From Dehalococcoidia bacterium (GTDB lineage: Bacteria; Chloroflexota; Dehalococcoidia; Lucifugimonadales; Australimonadaceae), in contig OY764542.1 in assembly GCA_963668465.1 (NCBI GenBank), positions 1,844,363 through 1,908,362 of the forward strand: 64,000 nt of DNA, given 5' to 3'. Below are positions 23,031-30,904 of this stretch, in pieces. Below the pieces are notes generated by a model. That model made no database searches and was not told the DNA's origin. It worked only from the letters and a program-made list of their open reading frames with translations. Numbering within the stretch: position 1 is the stretch's first letter; each line of letters begins with the position of its first letter. Position numbers and translations under genes: made by a program.

Positions 23031-24132
23031 TTATTCGCCCTCTACGCTGGAGAGCAGGTATGCACGCATGAACCCTTCCAACTCGCCGCCCAACACGAGG
23101 TCAGGGTTCGTGGACTCATAGCCGGAGCGGTGGTCCTTAACCATCTTGTACGGGTGGAGCACGTAGCTCCTGATCTGGCTCCCCCACCCCGCGGAGACAT
23201 GCTCGCCCTTGAGCGCGGCCCGCTCCTCAGCGCGCCTGCGCATCTCAACTTCCATGAGCCGGGCACGGAGAATCTTCATCGCTACTTCACGGTTCTGAAG
23301 TTGCGAGCGTTCGTTCTGACAGGAGACGACGATGCCGGACGGTAAGTGCCGGATTCGGACGGCGGTGGAGTTCTTCTGCACATGCTGGCCGCCTGCGCCG
23401 CTCGCCTTGAAGACATCCATCTCGATGTCGTCCGGGTTGATCTGCAGGGCCACGTTGTCTTCCGCTTCCGGCAGCACTTCCACGAGCGCGAACGAGGTGT
23501 GGCGCGCGTGTGCGGCGTCGAACGGCGAGAGGCGCACGAGCCGGTGTACGCCGCGCTCCGCCTTCGCGTATCCGTACGCATAGTCGCCTGCGACTTCCAG
23601 CGTCACGCTCTTGACTCCCGCTTCCTCGCCCGAGGAGAGGTCGAGCACCTGCGCCTTGAAGCCGCTCTGCGCCGCCCATCGCGTGTACATGCGCAGGAGC
23701 ATCTCGGTCCAGTCCTGAGCGTCGGTGCCGCCCTCGCGGGCATGGATGGCGACTATCGCGTTGCGGTCGTCGTACTCGCCGGAGAGCACCAGCAGCAGCT
23801 CACGCCGCTCGGCCTCGGCGAAGATCGCCGCGCTCTCCTCCGCGAGCTCCTCTGCCAGCGAAGCGTCGTCCGCCTCGATGGCCATGCTCAGGAGTTCGAT
23901 GGTCGAGCCCACGCGGGACTCGAAGCCGCGCCAGCCGTCGATGCTGGAGCGCAGGCGCGAGAGCCGCTGCATCACGGCCTGCGCGTGCTCCGGGTCGTTC
24001 CAGAAATCAGGAGCGGCTGCCTGCCCCTCTAGTCGCTCGAGTTCCGCTTGCTGGCCGGGGAGGTCAAAGCCGCACCATGATGCCGGCTATATGCCCGGCG
24101 AGGTCGGTGAGGCGTTGTCGCAGTTCTTCCAT
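23031..24132 (-). CDS. prfB: Peptide chain release factor 2, with programmed +1 frameshift (CTT TGA C at 24069-24063)
   Basis: ATG 24132 gives 22 codons (MEELRQRLTDLAGHIAGIMVRL), then an in-frame TGA. The +1 frame continues 'DLPGQQAELERLEGQAAAPDFWND' into the ORF ending at 23031. It carries 'SPF' and 'GGQ' motifs. Confidence 0.9.
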
Positions 24133-24244: not shown

Positions 24245-24321
24245 CGGGGTGTGGCGCAGTCCGGAAGCGCACCTGCATGGGGTGCAGGGGGCCGTTGGTT
24301 CAAATCCAATCACCCCGACCA
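24245..24321 (+). tRNA. tRNA-Pro (anticodon GGG), encoded CCA
   Basis: Hand-folded. Acceptor cggggtg/caccccg, anticodon stem cctgc/gcagg, loop atGGGgt, T-loop ttcaaat. Confidence 0.85.
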
Positions 24322-24804: not shown

Positions 24805-24833
24805 AGAGGCCGGTATGCGAAATACCGGCCTCT
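24805..24833. terminator. Bidirectional hairpin terminator
   Basis: agaggccggtat/ataccggcctct 12-bp stem with a 5-nt loop and a T-rich tail, between convergent genes. Confidence 0.65.
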
Positions 24834-24876: not shown

Positions 24877-25188
24877 TCAGGCCGCGAGCGGCATCGTCTG
24901 CATCCTGCGGAGCGCTCGGTGCACGGTGCGAACGCTGATGCCGAACCGATTCGCCACTTCGAAGGCCTGCAGGTTTTCGTACTGGCAGGCCCACGCTATC
25001 TCCTCGTCCCGTTCCCGCAGTTTGTAGGCCTGGTACCACGCCGGGTCATCGAACCTGCAACGCGGAAGCGGGCACTCCAGGCACGACATCGACGCCTCGC
25101 AGCCGGTGTCGGCGTATCGAATCTGTTCCGGCAGCCCATCCATAGCTGGTTCGTAGCGCCTGTCTCTCGGGTTCGTGTAGATGCTCAT
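24877..25188 (-). CDS. Small Cys-rich HTH DNA-binding protein
   Basis: RBS AGGAGG. It has a 'CEASMSCLECPLPRC' cysteine cluster and a C-terminal HTH 'EVANRFGISVRTVHRAL'. Confidence 0.6.
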   Translation of the reverse strand: MSIYTNPRDRRYEPAMDGLPEQIRYADTGCEASMSCLECPLPRCRFDDPAWYQAYKLRERDEEIAWACQYENLQAFEVANRFGISVRTVHRALRRMQTMPLAA

Positions 25189-25268
25189 CGCCTCTCCTCC
25201 TTCTGGTCATTCCGCCTCATAACGGCAATCCATGCGTTCTCGATTCCGTACTGTCCAGGCAACACTCT

Positions 25269-26579
25269 TCAGGACGCGATAGCCATGGGGAACGCCATCT
25301 GCTGCTCCCCCCCTTGCTCCGCATCCGCACTCGCCAACATCGATACCCCCTCCAGGAATCCATCGTTCTGTCCCTCGACCGCTACGGTGAATCCGCGTCC
25401 CTCGCCGACTCGTAGCACGGCCCACTCCACCTCGCGGCGCAGCGCCCGGTACTCCGGCGAACCGTCCGGTGCATAGAACGCCATCTTCCCTGTGAGGGCT
25501 GCCGCCATAACGGCGAACGATTCCTTTTCTCGCTGCCAAGCCGTATCGGGGACCCACTGCATGTGGGCCGGCTCCAGGTTCTGCTCCAACAGACTCCTTA
25601 CCTGGCCATCATTACGAGACGTACGCACCCTCACGAGCACGTCCTCGCACGGCCACGTCTTCTCGACGAACCGCTTCAGCCCTGCCACGAGCGTTGCCTC
25701 GTCTGCAGCCTCAGCCCACTTGTGGTCGAGGACACGCAACGCACCCGCAGTGCGCGATGCCACGGTGACGACAGCCGTCGCGGGGGCATCGACCGTACCC
25801 GCCGCTCGCGTGGCGACGATGGATGTCACCAGCCTGTCAGCCACGGCGAGCCTTCGCGGTCCGCCTTCCCCGAACAGGGCGCGCAGACGCTCACGCGGAA
25901 ACGCCGGAGCGCCTGCGGAGATGGGGCGGAGCGCGTACGCCGTCTGAAAGTCCGGGTGCAGGTCGCCGAGCCTCTGGCGTTCGACCTCGACCCGTTCCGC
26001 GTAGCCCGGCAGCTCTGCTTCCACGCGTTCCAGTGATACGCGGAAGTGCCTGCGGTCGCCGCCTGCTGCGGCAACTTCCTTGTTGGCGAGTTTCACCCGC
26101 TCGAATGGGGTCTGGCCGTTCCAGGGGCGCCCGTAGAGGACGAGCGTCGCACCGGAGCCGTTCGCCATCTCCTGCAGGCGCACCATCTCGGTGGGTCGGA
26201 GGAGGTGGGCCTCGACGACCTGGATCAGATCGAAGTGCCCGCGTACGTGCTCCAGGTCCTCGGGCGTTGCGTACAGCACCTGCGCGCGTCCCAACCGCAC
26301 ACACGCGCTCTCGTCCGACCACAACCCCTTCAGCGAACCCGAGCGCAGGTGGCTGACGAGCCGGCCTTTCACGTCCGGTTGCCCGCCCGGAACGACGCGG
26401 AGCAGAACCCCTCCCGCGTTCACGTTCACGCTCATCACCAGCATCTCCAACTGGGAGGCCAGCTCGTTCACGCCTGCCCCGATCGGCATCTCGACCGTGA
26501 ACGCCGAGCCCTGCTGCTGCAATACGTCCGATGTAACCGCTGTCGCTATCTCACGCTGATATGTCGTTGGCGTCTTCAT
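25269..26579 (-). CDS. Terminase-large-subunit-like protein (ATPase-like N-terminal half, RNase-H-like C-terminal half; catalytic motifs apparently degenerate)
   Basis: The motif order looks like TerL: 'YQREI', 'MPIGAGVNE' at the Walker A position (no Lys), 'FDLIQVVEAH' at Walker B, 'TLVLYGRPWNG', and 'NDGFLEGVSML' near the C-terminus. This is pattern recognition only, with no profile search. Confidence 0.35.
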   Translation of the reverse strand: MKTPTTYQREIATAVTSDVLQQQGSAFTVEMPIGAGVNELASQLEMLVMSVNVNAGGVLLRVVPGGQPDVKGRLVSHLRSGSLKGLWSDESACVRLGRAQVLYATPEDLEHVRGHFDLIQVVEAHLLRPTEMVRLQEMANGSGATLVLYGRPWNGQTPFERVKLANKEVAAAGGDRRHFRVSLERVEAELPGYAERVEVERQRLGDLHPDFQTAYALRPISAGAPAFPRERLRALFGEGGPRRLAVADRLVTSIVATRAAGTVDAPATAVVTVASRTAGALRVLDHKWAEAADEATLVAGLKRFVEKTWPCEDVLVRVRTSRNDGQVRSLLEQNLEPAHMQWVPDTAWQREKESFAVMAAALTGKMAFYAPDGSPEYRALRREVEWAVLRVGEGRGFTVAVEGQNDGFLEGVSMLASADAEQGGEQQMAFPMAIAS

Positions 26580-26594
26580 CTCAATGCTCCCGGC

Positions 26595-26670
26595 AGAACG
26601 TATGTACTACGCTGCGGGCATATTAGAACGCCTGTTCTATGCTGTCAACACCGTTTAGAACGCATGTTTC
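26595..26670 (-). promoter_or_regulatory. Promoter TTGACA-17-TAATAT (minus strand: -35 at 26648-26643, -10 at 26625-26620) with three GAAC-N4-GTTC operator boxes
   Basis: The boxes are AGAACGTATGTACT (26595-26608), TAGAACGCCTGTTCTA (26624-26639, a perfect 16-nt palindrome filling the spacer) and AGAACGCATGTTTC (26657-26670). Confidence 0.7.
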
Positions 26671-30410: not shown

Positions 30411-30506
30411 TCACTGCTCGACGTAGGCTTCCGCGGCGGGCATGAGGTCGAGCTGGGCCCTGATGCAGGCGTGGTAGCGTGCAATGGAGCGGACGGCGGA
30501 CCTCAT
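30411..30506 (-). CDS. Candidate 31-aa micro-ORF (MRSAVRSIARYHACIRAQLDLMPAAEAYVEQ)
   Basis: Its ATG overlaps the upstream gene's TGA as ATGA. Its stop is followed at once by the AAGGAGG RBS of the next gene. It is below the ORF-track size cutoff. Confidence 0.35.
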   Translation of the reverse strand: MRSAVRSIARYHACIRAQLDLMPAAEAYVEQ

Positions 30507-30904
30507 CGCTGGTACCTCAACAGGGCGGTAGCGGTCTGGAGGGTTTCCAGATCGTGGCGGATCTCGCGGACGTCGCCGACCTTAAGCGCGGTGGAGAGGG
30601 TGATGCGGACGGCCATGGCCCTGACCCTGGGGTTGGGGTCCTCCAGGAGTTCAGCGAGGATGTTGATGCTCTTGAGGACGAGGCCCTGGAGTTCGACGCG
30701 CGCCAGGGACTCGGCGTCCTTGCGGACACGTTCGAGTTCGCCGCGGAAGACGGGGTCGTGCATCCACCTGTGGAGGGTGGTGCGGTTGATGCGAGCGGCC
30801 TTCGCGCCGGCAGTGAGCGAGTCGGTGGCGGCGATATAGGGAAGCGCAAGGGTCTGCTTGGGTGAGAGGGCGACTTTTCTGTTTTCTGTTGCTTTCTGCT
30901 GCAT
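30503..30904 (-). CDS. HTH protein, phage terminase-small-subunit-like N-terminus
   Basis: ATG 30904 has GGAG upstream. 'LSPKQTLALPYIAATDSLTAGAKAARINRTTLHRWMHDPVFRGEL' resembles the TerS/HTH_23 pattern. The assignment is from memory only. Confidence 0.45.
   Translation of the reverse strand: MQQKATENRKVALSPKQTLALPYIAATDSLTAGAKAARINRTTLHRWMHDPVFRGELERVRKDAESLARVELQGLVLKSINILAELLEDPNPRVRAMAVRITLSTALKVGDVREIRHDLETLQTATALLRYQR

Follow-up and report, generated by a model that had tools for sequence, protein, structure and literature searches.

What does a bacterium do with the large subunit of a phage terminase (TerL) when this protein has lost its catalytic residues and no phage is found around it? 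The question is raised by a pair of genes in a 64,000-nucleotide (nt) stretch of DNA from a Dehalococcoidia bacterium (contig OY764542.1). We will call this whole 64-kb stretch the window, and coordinates refer to it unless another locus is named. Large terminases are regarded as hallmark enzymes of viruses, and finding one normally means that a prophage is present. The initial annotation proposed for this locus an exapted terminase fold with altered catalytic sites, under SOS-type control and followed by a small protein with a Cys cluster and a helix-turn-helix (HTH). We find that the larger protein is related to TerL both by its predicted fold and by homology, that its catalytic positions are replaced throughout its clade and that the pair behaves as a host locus under selection. 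Our preferred answer, to which we give about even chances, is that the locus is the remnant of a phage packaging operon, domesticated and kept by the host as a damage-inducible two-gene unit which acts without catalysis.

The two genes form a compact transcription unit, with a promoter, the TerL-like gene, a spacer, the partner gene and a terminator hairpin. Its parts downstream of the promoter are as follows.

25269-26579, minus strand: TerL-like gene (436 amino acids, aa), from the list of open reading frames (ORFs); ATPase-like domain at about residues 1-240, RNase H-like domain at about residues 249-425
26463-26489, minus strand: degenerate P-loop MPIGAGVNE, residues 31-39, which aligns with ARQxGKNE of the intact relatives
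25272-25304, minus strand: C-terminal tail of the TerL-like protein, residues 426-436, with a predicted local distance difference test score (pLDDT) below 50 and a terminal A-x-A-S
25189-25268, minus strand: intergenic spacer of 80 nt, with a strong Shine-Dalgarno sequence AAGGAGGAG ahead of the partner gene
24877-25188, minus strand: partner gene (103 aa), with an N-terminal Cys4 block, a C-terminal three-helix HTH and the protein end ...PLAA
25057-25101, minus strand: Cys4 block of the partner, residues 30-44
24895-25044, minus strand: HTH of the partner, residues 49-98
24805-24833, no strand assigned: GC-rich hairpin of 12-13 bp, a bidirectional terminator which the module shares with the convergent gene for F420H2-quinone reductase

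Both ORFs, of 436 and 103 aa, lie where the initial annotation had placed them. A Shine-Dalgarno-like GGGAG is found upstream of the first ATG of the TerL-like gene.

We will start with the large protein. Direct searches were empty: it has no match in Pfam, PHROGs, NCBIfam, PADLOC or a PDB sequence search, nor by tblastn in 50,697 phage genomes. Its relationship to TerL is therefore visible only by structure and by the profile of its clade. A word-indexed search gave 45 clusters; all of them come from metagenome bins of Chloroflexota, and Pfam recognises no domain in any. On the alignment of these relatives we built an AlphaFold2 model (pLDDT 81, predicted TM score 0.70), which shows a complete two-domain TerL fold, with a predicted N-terminal ASCE ATPase and a predicted C-terminal RNase H-like nuclease. 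When the model is compared with the PDB by Foldseek, the top 28 matches are all TerLs. Sf6 gp2 (E = 5e-14) is among the best neighbours, together with HK97 and T4 gp17, and the TerL of D6E gives a full-length TM score of 0.63-0.69. In the viral structures of BFVD there are 303 matches at E ≤ 0.001; the top 50 listed are essentially all TerLs, led by that of Bacillus phage BCD7 (E = 8e-22). The fold check has thus returned a terminase and not some other fold, and the order of motifs read in the initial annotation, an ATPase-like half followed by a nuclease half, is upheld by the model and by its matches in both collections.

Homology leads to the same family by a different way. An exhaustive search with the clade profile found 818 relatives. 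The near ones (33-52% identity) resemble the window protein, the far ones (23-29% identity, 450-510 aa) bear canonical TerL motifs, and three of ten scanned far relatives reach Pfam Terminase_6C. The intact relatives also match PHROG TerL families. One of them, from a Dehalococcoidia chromosome, is 30% identical over 95% of its length to the annotated TerL of Bacillus phage vB_BboS-125 (E = 1e-39). A mixed profile reaches the solved nuclease domains of P74-26/G20c, so that the VDATG and GHDD motifs could be aligned to those of the crystal structures. The evidence from fold and the evidence from homology are independent and they agree.

The catalytic sites give a very uniform picture. Motif columns were tabulated from an alignment of 82 sequences of the window clade, which we call degenerate, and 79 intact sequences; the columns of the second and third nuclease motifs (VDATG and GHDD) were anchored to the P74-26/G20c domains. 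In the intact sequences Walker A reads A-R-Q-x-G-K-N-E, with R in 79, Q in 78 and K in 79 of the 79. The degenerate clade has M-P-L/I-G-A-G-V-N-E: the Arg-Gln of the P-loop has become Leu/Ile-Gly and Lys is found in none of the 82 members, its column being Val37 in the window protein. The reading of MPIGAGVNE as a Walker A site without Lys or Thr was therefore correct. Walker B is L-L-E-V-D-E-A-Q-D in the intact sequences (Asp in 75 and Asn in 4; Glu in 79). The Asp column is occupied by Val, Leu, Ala or Ile in all 82 degenerate ones, and the next acidic residue (Asp or Glu) is kept. Motif III changes from Y-G-T to Y-G-R (72 of 82). The nuclease half follows the same pattern. The first Asp (AGxDxAG), present in 77 of the 79 intact sequences, is Val in 78 of the 82; the second (VDATG, 71 of 79) is Arg in 69; the Asp-Asp of GHDD (71 of 79) is Glu-Gly (75-81 of 82). 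The initial annotation had also announced the replacement of nuclease Asp residues, by Ala, Thr or Arg. The loss is confirmed in the whole clade, but the residues found in the window are Val255, Arg317 and Gly407, the last one after Asn405-Asp406.

The residues which replace the catalytic ones are themselves conserved across the degenerate clade. Other, non-catalytic motifs are common to both clades: YQ upstream of the P-loop, the NELxxQLE helix after it, R73-L74, YG and DGSxE. As far as sequences can tell, this is the pattern of a pseudoenzyme which keeps its fold and probably its interaction surfaces, unlike a gene in decay. The protein departs from a terminase in four respects, namely Walker A, Walker B with motif III, the acidic residues of the nuclease and the context of a morphogenesis cluster. 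For this reason we classify it as a pseudoenzyme derivative and not as a terminase. A catalytically altered terminase, as first proposed, is thus what the alignment displays: the positions replaced in the 82 sequences are kept by the intact relatives. It is very unlikely that we are dealing with a working terminase which uses non-canonical residues and belongs to a dispersed prophage or to a gene transfer agent (GTA) with its other genes elsewhere. GTAs can indeed be split over several loci, and the full fold, the Tyr-Gln pair and one acidic residue at both Walker B and the third nuclease motif are retained. But the Walker A Lys, the P-loop Arg-Gln, the Walker B Asp, the motif III Thr and the three metal-binding Asp positions are jointly lost in 82 of 82 sequences, and Arg occupies two of the catalytic sites. 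Furthermore, the 64 kb of the window contain no portal or other cassette gene, and in the complete chromosomes this TerL family has no further member.

The distribution of the locus is that of a host gene. When a single genome was scanned for each species, 37 loci appeared in 37 genomes, one copy in each, all of them in Dehalococcoidia/SAR202. The degenerate clade comprises loci L003-L030 of the scan plus L001 and L002, while L031-L039 have intact TerLs. Twelve complete chromosomes have exactly one degenerate copy each. The neighbours are cellular and syntenic, with HIT, HD, Rieske/LigXa and arylsulfotransferase genes on one side and F420H2-quinone reductase, tRNA-Pro, prfB and SBP_bac_5 on the other; this synteny persists over the whole range of divergence of the degenerate loci. 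The ORFs are intact in 30 of 31 copies (the window and L001-L030), with 36-83% identity to the window protein. Pairwise ratios of non-synonymous to synonymous substitution rates (dN/dS), taken at unsaturated distances, lie at 0.16-0.19 in the TerL-like gene and at about 0.09 in the partner. Within 6 kb on either side of the module Pfam gave no match to a capsid, portal, tail or integrase gene. A tblastn search with the portal and the remaining cassette genes of the relatives was negative both in the window and in the 30 other degenerate loci. The initial annotation, which saw no such genes nearby, was right on this point. Single copy, purifying selection, cellular syntenic neighbours and the lack of cassette genes all indicate that the locus is neither a prophage nor debris. 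An ordinary prophage with intact catalytic residues is also not what we find, since the residues are lost and there is no prophage around the module.

A decaying, functionless fragment of a prophage has an almost negligible probability. It would agree with the phage ancestry and with one frameshifted locus (L029), but 30 of the 31 copies are intact ORFs in spite of their divergence, with dN/dS of 0.1-0.2, while promoter, operators, spacer, partner and C-termini are conserved and the synteny is fixed. These data on selection and conservation effectively refute it. In L029 (6001-7303) the TerL-like gene has an internal frameshift, either an assembly error or a recent pseudogene. A natural fusion of both proteins in this locus was considered and rejected, given that frameshift and a proper frame which ends in ...APAALAS*. 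An apparent duplication on one 2.85-Mb contig (P0007/P0010) was also rejected: the copies lie at the two contig ends and have identical neighbours. These two ends are L121 and L122 (ena:ERZ21830300:ctg717501l, 27-37 kb and 2,838-2,847 kb), whose proteins are about 81-82% identical; they probably represent an artefact, a circular overlap which merges two strains, not a gene duplication.

The intact relatives point to the origin of the pair. In the intact chromosomal TerLs of Dehalococcoidia the next gene is a homologue of the partner (about 50% identity, E = 1e-27), and in four loci (L031-L033, L035) an SPP1-type portal follows TerL and the Cys4-HTH gene. The pairing of both proteins is thus ancestral and existed with a catalytically intact TerL. 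These mini-cassettes are ordered as a promoter with a LexA-type box, small ORFs, intact TerL, Cys4-HTH and SPP1-type portal. They extend over about 4800-9000 in L031-L033 and about 3200-8020 in L035. Their direct neighbours are host genes (relA/spoT, rpsT, MFS), no capsid or tail gene is present in the sequence examined around them, and they are under purifying selection (dN/dS about 0.1). The intact cassette operons start with the same design as the module, with a -35, a GAAC-N4-GTTC-type box and an overlapping -10. The mini-cassettes could represent a stage on the way to domestication, or else belong to a dispersed system that forms particles. A conserved ORF of about 92 aa (5699-5977 in L031, 4114-4389 in L035, about 5814-5948 in L037), with a hydrophobic C-terminal helix (RINGLxFLVxGxVxxQ), lies immediately upstream of the intact TerL. 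It matches no family and is absent from all loci of the degenerate clade. In L033 a premature stop (about 7290) follows closely on the GHDD motif of the intact TerL.

Intact relatives are also encoded by 431 viral contigs of IMG/VR. The portal normally comes directly after TerL in them; in a minority the Cys4-HTH gene is placed between both, or it lies several kb away. Given that in the same class the intact relatives stand in TerL-HTH-portal cassettes whose promoters are built alike, the pair appears to be the domesticated remnant of a damage-inducible packaging operon. A history in three stages is the most economical account of the two-gene locus. It would have begun with a Chloroflexota phage lineage whose packaging operon was controlled by a damage box. 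The chromosomal TerL-HTH-portal cassettes would derive from that phage operon. Finally the portal and the upstream ORFs would have been lost, the promoter would have moved next to TerL and all catalytic residues would have been replaced.

We should now consider how the pair may be controlled. The region upstream of the TerL-like gene has the following features.

26658-26669, minus strand: distal operator-like box AAACATGCGTTC (gene strand), one mismatch to GAAC-N4-GTTC, at about -90 from the start codon
26643-26648, minus strand: -35 hexamer TTGACA
26626-26637, minus strand: central operator tAGAACaggcGTTCTa, a perfect GAAC-N4-GTTC in the 17-nt promoter spacer, whose right arm abuts the -10
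26620-26625, minus strand: -10 hexamer TAATAT
26596-26607, minus strand: proximal operator-like box GTACATACGTTC, one mismatch, at about -28 from the start codon, downstream of the -10

The promoter matches sigma-70 in 10 of 12 positions (TTGACA-17-TAATAT, 26648 to 26620). The boxes are three copies of AGAACGyaTGTwC, 30 and 32 bp apart: the perfect central one lies in the promoter spacer and the copies with one mismatch are found upstream of the -35 and downstream of the -10. We compared the promoters of the 31 degenerate-clade loci, the window and L001-L030. All of them have a perfect TTGACA, and 30 have TAnTAT as -10 (TAAACT in L027). The central box is also present in all 31, with fixed arms (ATTC in one subclade) and an N4 core which drifts. 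The distal box is found at about -90 in 30 loci, with a perfect GAAC-N4-GTTC in 10; by the one-mismatch criterion it is absent from L020. The proximal box, at about -28, is found in 26 loci. It is missing in the L002/L018/L020/L023 subclade and has two mismatches in L003. Each promoter carries between one and three boxes. An arrangement conserved in 31 loci means that the boxes are not chance matches. In 555 kb of DNA from this lineage the perfect 14-mer AGAAC-N4-GTTCT occurs elsewhere only upstream of two intact cassettes, and no other box in a promoter context was found in the window.

PMC4951493 describes GAAC-N4-GTTC as the LexA box in Firmicutes and in Actinobacteria. With reference to Fernandez de Henestrosa et al. 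2002, it also reports the motif for Dehalococcoides ethenogenes, which belongs to the same class. Since the boxes match this motif of Dehalococcoides and of Gram-positives, we infer that LexA represses the promoter of the module, with a putative cooperative occupancy of boxes that are about three helical turns apart. The tight, SOS-type repression claimed in the initial annotation agrees with a sigma-70 promoter which has a perfect box and two flanking ones, kept in the 31 loci; LexA is here identified through its motif. The boxes might instead be operators of the module's own Cys4-HTH protein, which would regulate itself, or of another phage-type repressor, so that the module would be outside the SOS regulon. 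We consider this unlikely. The palindrome would suit any dimeric HTH protein, the HTH partner accompanies every cassette that bears the operator, either intact or degenerate, and the lineage DNA provides no core SOS gene in which to check for the motif. However, the motif is exactly the LexA box known from Gram-positives and reported for Dehalococcoides, of the same class. Three viral contigs (L075, L079, L118) have the box upstream of TerL and no partner gene in the available sequence, and the position of the boxes over the spacer and the transcription start fits repression. No repressor gene is linked, and the upstream neighbours vary between loci.

The partner is as constant as the TerL-like protein. 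It is present in all 31 loci, and the two genes are separated by 72-84 nt in 28 of the 30 intact loci. In most loci the spacer has a near-constant length and a conserved sequence (GTGTTGCCTGGA...GAGAACGCATGGATAGCCGTTATGA...). It also contains a half-operator-like AGAACGCATGGAT. An RNA structure in the 80 nt of the window is unsupported (-4 kcal/mol, no covariation). The Cys cluster C-x5-C-x2-C-x4-C of the initial annotation corresponds to C30, C36, C39 and C44, and the HTH announced with it is modelled with confidence as three helices at residues 49-98. The four Cys are invariant in a highly conserved block, D-T-G-C-E-x-S-x-S-C-L-x-C-P-L-P-x-C-(K/R)-F-D-D-P-x-W-Y, which remains unmodelled, as expected for a metal site. 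The similarities of the partner are below family thresholds: Pfam Mor (E = 0.028; 14.9 bits, where the family requires 24.9), Pfam Sigma70_r4_2 (E = 0.0035) and PHROG 836 (E = 0.013; 4.6e-6 for the L031 orthologue). In the fold search only generic HTH neighbours appear, at E > 0.1, with Mu Mor 1rr7 among the top Foldseek matches (E = 0.16). No HNH signature was found. In the PADLOC defence models the TerL-like protein has no match and the partner only one at the level of the HTH (mad1, E = 4e-4, 19 residues).

Two identities of the partner were tried and rejected. It is not a small terminase subunit (TerS): no TerS family appears among its Pfam and PHROG matches, its HTH is C-terminal and its gene lies downstream of TerL, far from it in several viral contigs. 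It is not WhiB-like either, as there is no Whib match in Pfam or NCBIfam and the spacing C-x5-C-x2-C-x4-C differs from C-x(n)-C-x2-C-x5-C of WhiB. It could also be thought that the HTH protein is the true effector, an SOS-switched second-tier activator similar to Mor/C, for which the TerL-like protein would be a chaperone, a co-factor or an anti-activator. The partner is the more constrained gene of the two, its similarity to phage late activators and to sigma region 4 is weak but recurrent, and in several viral contigs its homologue is away from TerL. Nevertheless we find this improbable: the similarities do not reach family thresholds, no target promoters are known, and the retention of a dead TerL of 436 aa with its full fold and many invariant residues is left unexplained.

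The C-termini are conserved in both proteins. In the tail of the TerL-like protein A433, A435 and S436 are invariant in 30 of 30 loci and form an A-x-A-S end, where the intact relatives carry a tail of R-x-A-R-G type. The partner ends in ...LAA, ...AAA, ...QAA, ...QVA or ...AAS in 30 of 30 loci. These Ala-rich ends look like ssrA-like degrons. There is a precedent in the control of the SOS protein RecN by ClpXP (PMC10165496).

How would such a remnant of a packaging operon work as a damage-inducible unit? LexA on the boxes would keep the operon off until the DNA is damaged. With its catalytic residues absent, the TerL-like protein would be unable to hydrolyse ATP or to cut DNA and would act stoichiometrically, by binding. 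The HTH partner would supply DNA targeting or transcriptional control, and the degron-like C-termini would clear both proteins quickly. The target would be the packaging machinery or the DNA of related phage elements, which would be co-induced, since they have the same operator; the dead subunit would poison or regulate their motor, and in a ring motor whose subunits are coordinated such poisoning is plausible. The choice of this target is the least certain step and we give it about one chance in three.

A stronger version is that the dead terminase is a poison subunit encoded by the host, which enters or caps the pentameric motor or the portal of the phage and stalls packaging, until its degron-like tail leads to its removal. 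Repression by LexA would be lifted when DNA is damaged or a prophage is induced, and the dead terminase would then be expressed together with the packaging genes of related phages. The Cys4-HTH partner would attach to sites by which the phage itself controls its genes or its packaging. This remains rather doubtful, but if true it would mean that a pseudoenzyme serves as a defence of a new type, against phages or against induction. The pair may also act on host DNA as a scaffold of the damage response, in the manner of imuA-imuB, with the dead TerL bound to ends or junctions and recruited there by the HTH protein. SOS-type control, vertical inheritance like that of a core gene and purifying selection would fit such a role, and so would a pseudoenzyme state fixed by conserved replacement residues; the TerL fold also joins a DNA translocase domain to a DNA-binding domain of RNase H/RuvC type. 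But no repair gene is linked in any locus, the binding of DNA ends or junctions has no support, and the ancestry points to partners in packaging (portal, phage regulator) rather than in repair. We think a scaffold has a low probability.

Several observations weigh against a damage-inducible, non-catalytic remnant directed at phage elements. The 555 kb of lineage DNA contain no lexA, recA or other SOS gene, so that the motif at core SOS genes is not demonstrable there, and the palindrome could instead be bound by the HTH protein of the module. Ahead of the P-loop the Tyr-Gln pair, which we take to be the adenine-contacting Q motif, is retained, and with it nucleotide binding may persist. The loss of canonical residues argues against ATPase and nuclease activities, short of proof. 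Among the 14 complete chromosomes matched, 12 have the degenerate module and two an intact cassette, and none carries both. The locus behaves like a stable core gene, with fixed synteny and moderate dN/dS, unlike a fast-moving defence gene. Finally, the case for degrons comes from a sequence pattern only, and 7-18% of the background ORFs in this Ala-rich genome end in a similar way.

Some features of the surroundings should be mentioned. A tRNA-Pro(GGG) gene (24245-24321, plus strand) separates prfB from the F420H2-quinone reductase gene, and its distance to the end of the module is about 550 bp; neither an integrase nor a repeat suggests that it has served as an integration site. The prfB gene (23031-24132, minus strand) has the classic CTT TGA C programmed +1 frameshift site at 24063-24069 (minus strand), and for this reason its mechanical ORF (314 aa) lacks the N-terminus. 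About 4 kb upstream of the module an ORF of 133 aa (30506-30904, minus strand) matches PHROG 2538 'terminase small subunit' (E = 1.3e-5) and weakly Pfam HTH_Tnp_1_2. It was rejected as a component of the module, as it is found near it in only 2 of 30 other loci. It looks recently mobile, since its amino acid identity is 95-99% and that of the flanking genes about 81%.

As a whole, the interpretation given in the initial annotation is supported, and each of its elements which could be tested has survived. It also called such a terminase undescribed. This agrees with our full-text literature search, which included a 2022 review of mobile-element recruitment and, within the collection of papers covered, gave no description of a dead, exapted or pseudo-terminase. 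SAR202/Dehalococcoidia are abundant in the deep ocean and in sponges, and the whole lineage keeps a terminase free of catalytic residues as a selected, syntenic host gene behind an apparent SOS switch with three operators. All this suggests that a viral motor protein has been re-used for a non-enzymatic job of the host, which adds the TerL fold to the viral proteins exapted by cells. Viral contig, chromosomal TerL-HTH-portal cassette and pair of dead TerL and HTH form a natural series in which a motor enzyme becomes a pseudoenzyme. The module is a candidate new member of the SOS regulon in an uncultured lineage, and a match to the TerL fold in one of these genomes should not be taken for a prophage. 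The locus is relevant to research on phages, on the SOS response and on pseudoenzymes.

We will end with a comparison with known systems. Among the TerLs of tailed phages, those of Bacillus phages BCD7 and vB_BboS-125 represent the sequence lineage of the window protein, while D6E TerL and Sf6 gp2 are its structural kin. It shares with them the two-domain architecture, the order of motifs, profile homology through the intact Dehalococcoidia relatives and several non-catalytic motifs. It differs by having neither catalytic residues nor an adjacent portal or capsid gene, and by being chromosomal, syntenic and single-copy, with its own operator-loaded promoter directly upstream and an A-x-A-S C-terminus. 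The closest relatives are the cassettes of L031-L033, L035 and L037 and the IMG/VR contigs, in which TerL is about 25-35% and the partner about 50% identical. The mini-cassettes have the same gene order, TerL and then Cys4-HTH, and a GAAC-N4-GTTC-type box that overlaps the -10. Unlike the module they keep the catalytic residues, the portal gene and the 92-aa upstream ORF, and their promoter lies 0.5-1.3 kb upstream, ahead of the small ORFs, whereas that of the module is directly upstream.

Other systems are more distant. Mu Mor/C and region 4 of sigma-70 resemble the partner, by weak profile and fold similarity, in that it is small and ends in an HTH whose three helices have a similar geometry; the N-terminal half of the partner is a Cys4 block, unlike Mor/C, and all scores are below family cut-offs. 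Conceptually the module is also close to the packaging interference by Ppi of SaPIs (pathogenicity islands) and to GTAs, where host or satellite proteins come from a phage terminase or act against it, in some cases with a link to SOS. Nevertheless GTAs keep active terminases and full head and tail clusters, and we know of no packaging-interference protein which is a dead TerL homologue. Finally, imuA-imuB(-dnaE2) is an operon with a LexA box in which catalytically dead homologues of RecA and of Y-family polymerases act as adaptors. Its folds are unrelated to those of the module, with no homology, and it is linked to a catalytic partner, DnaE2, whereas none is linked here; but both systems have dead relatives of enzymes under SOS-type control, and imuA-imuB is established as an earlier case of pseudoenzymes within the SOS regulon.

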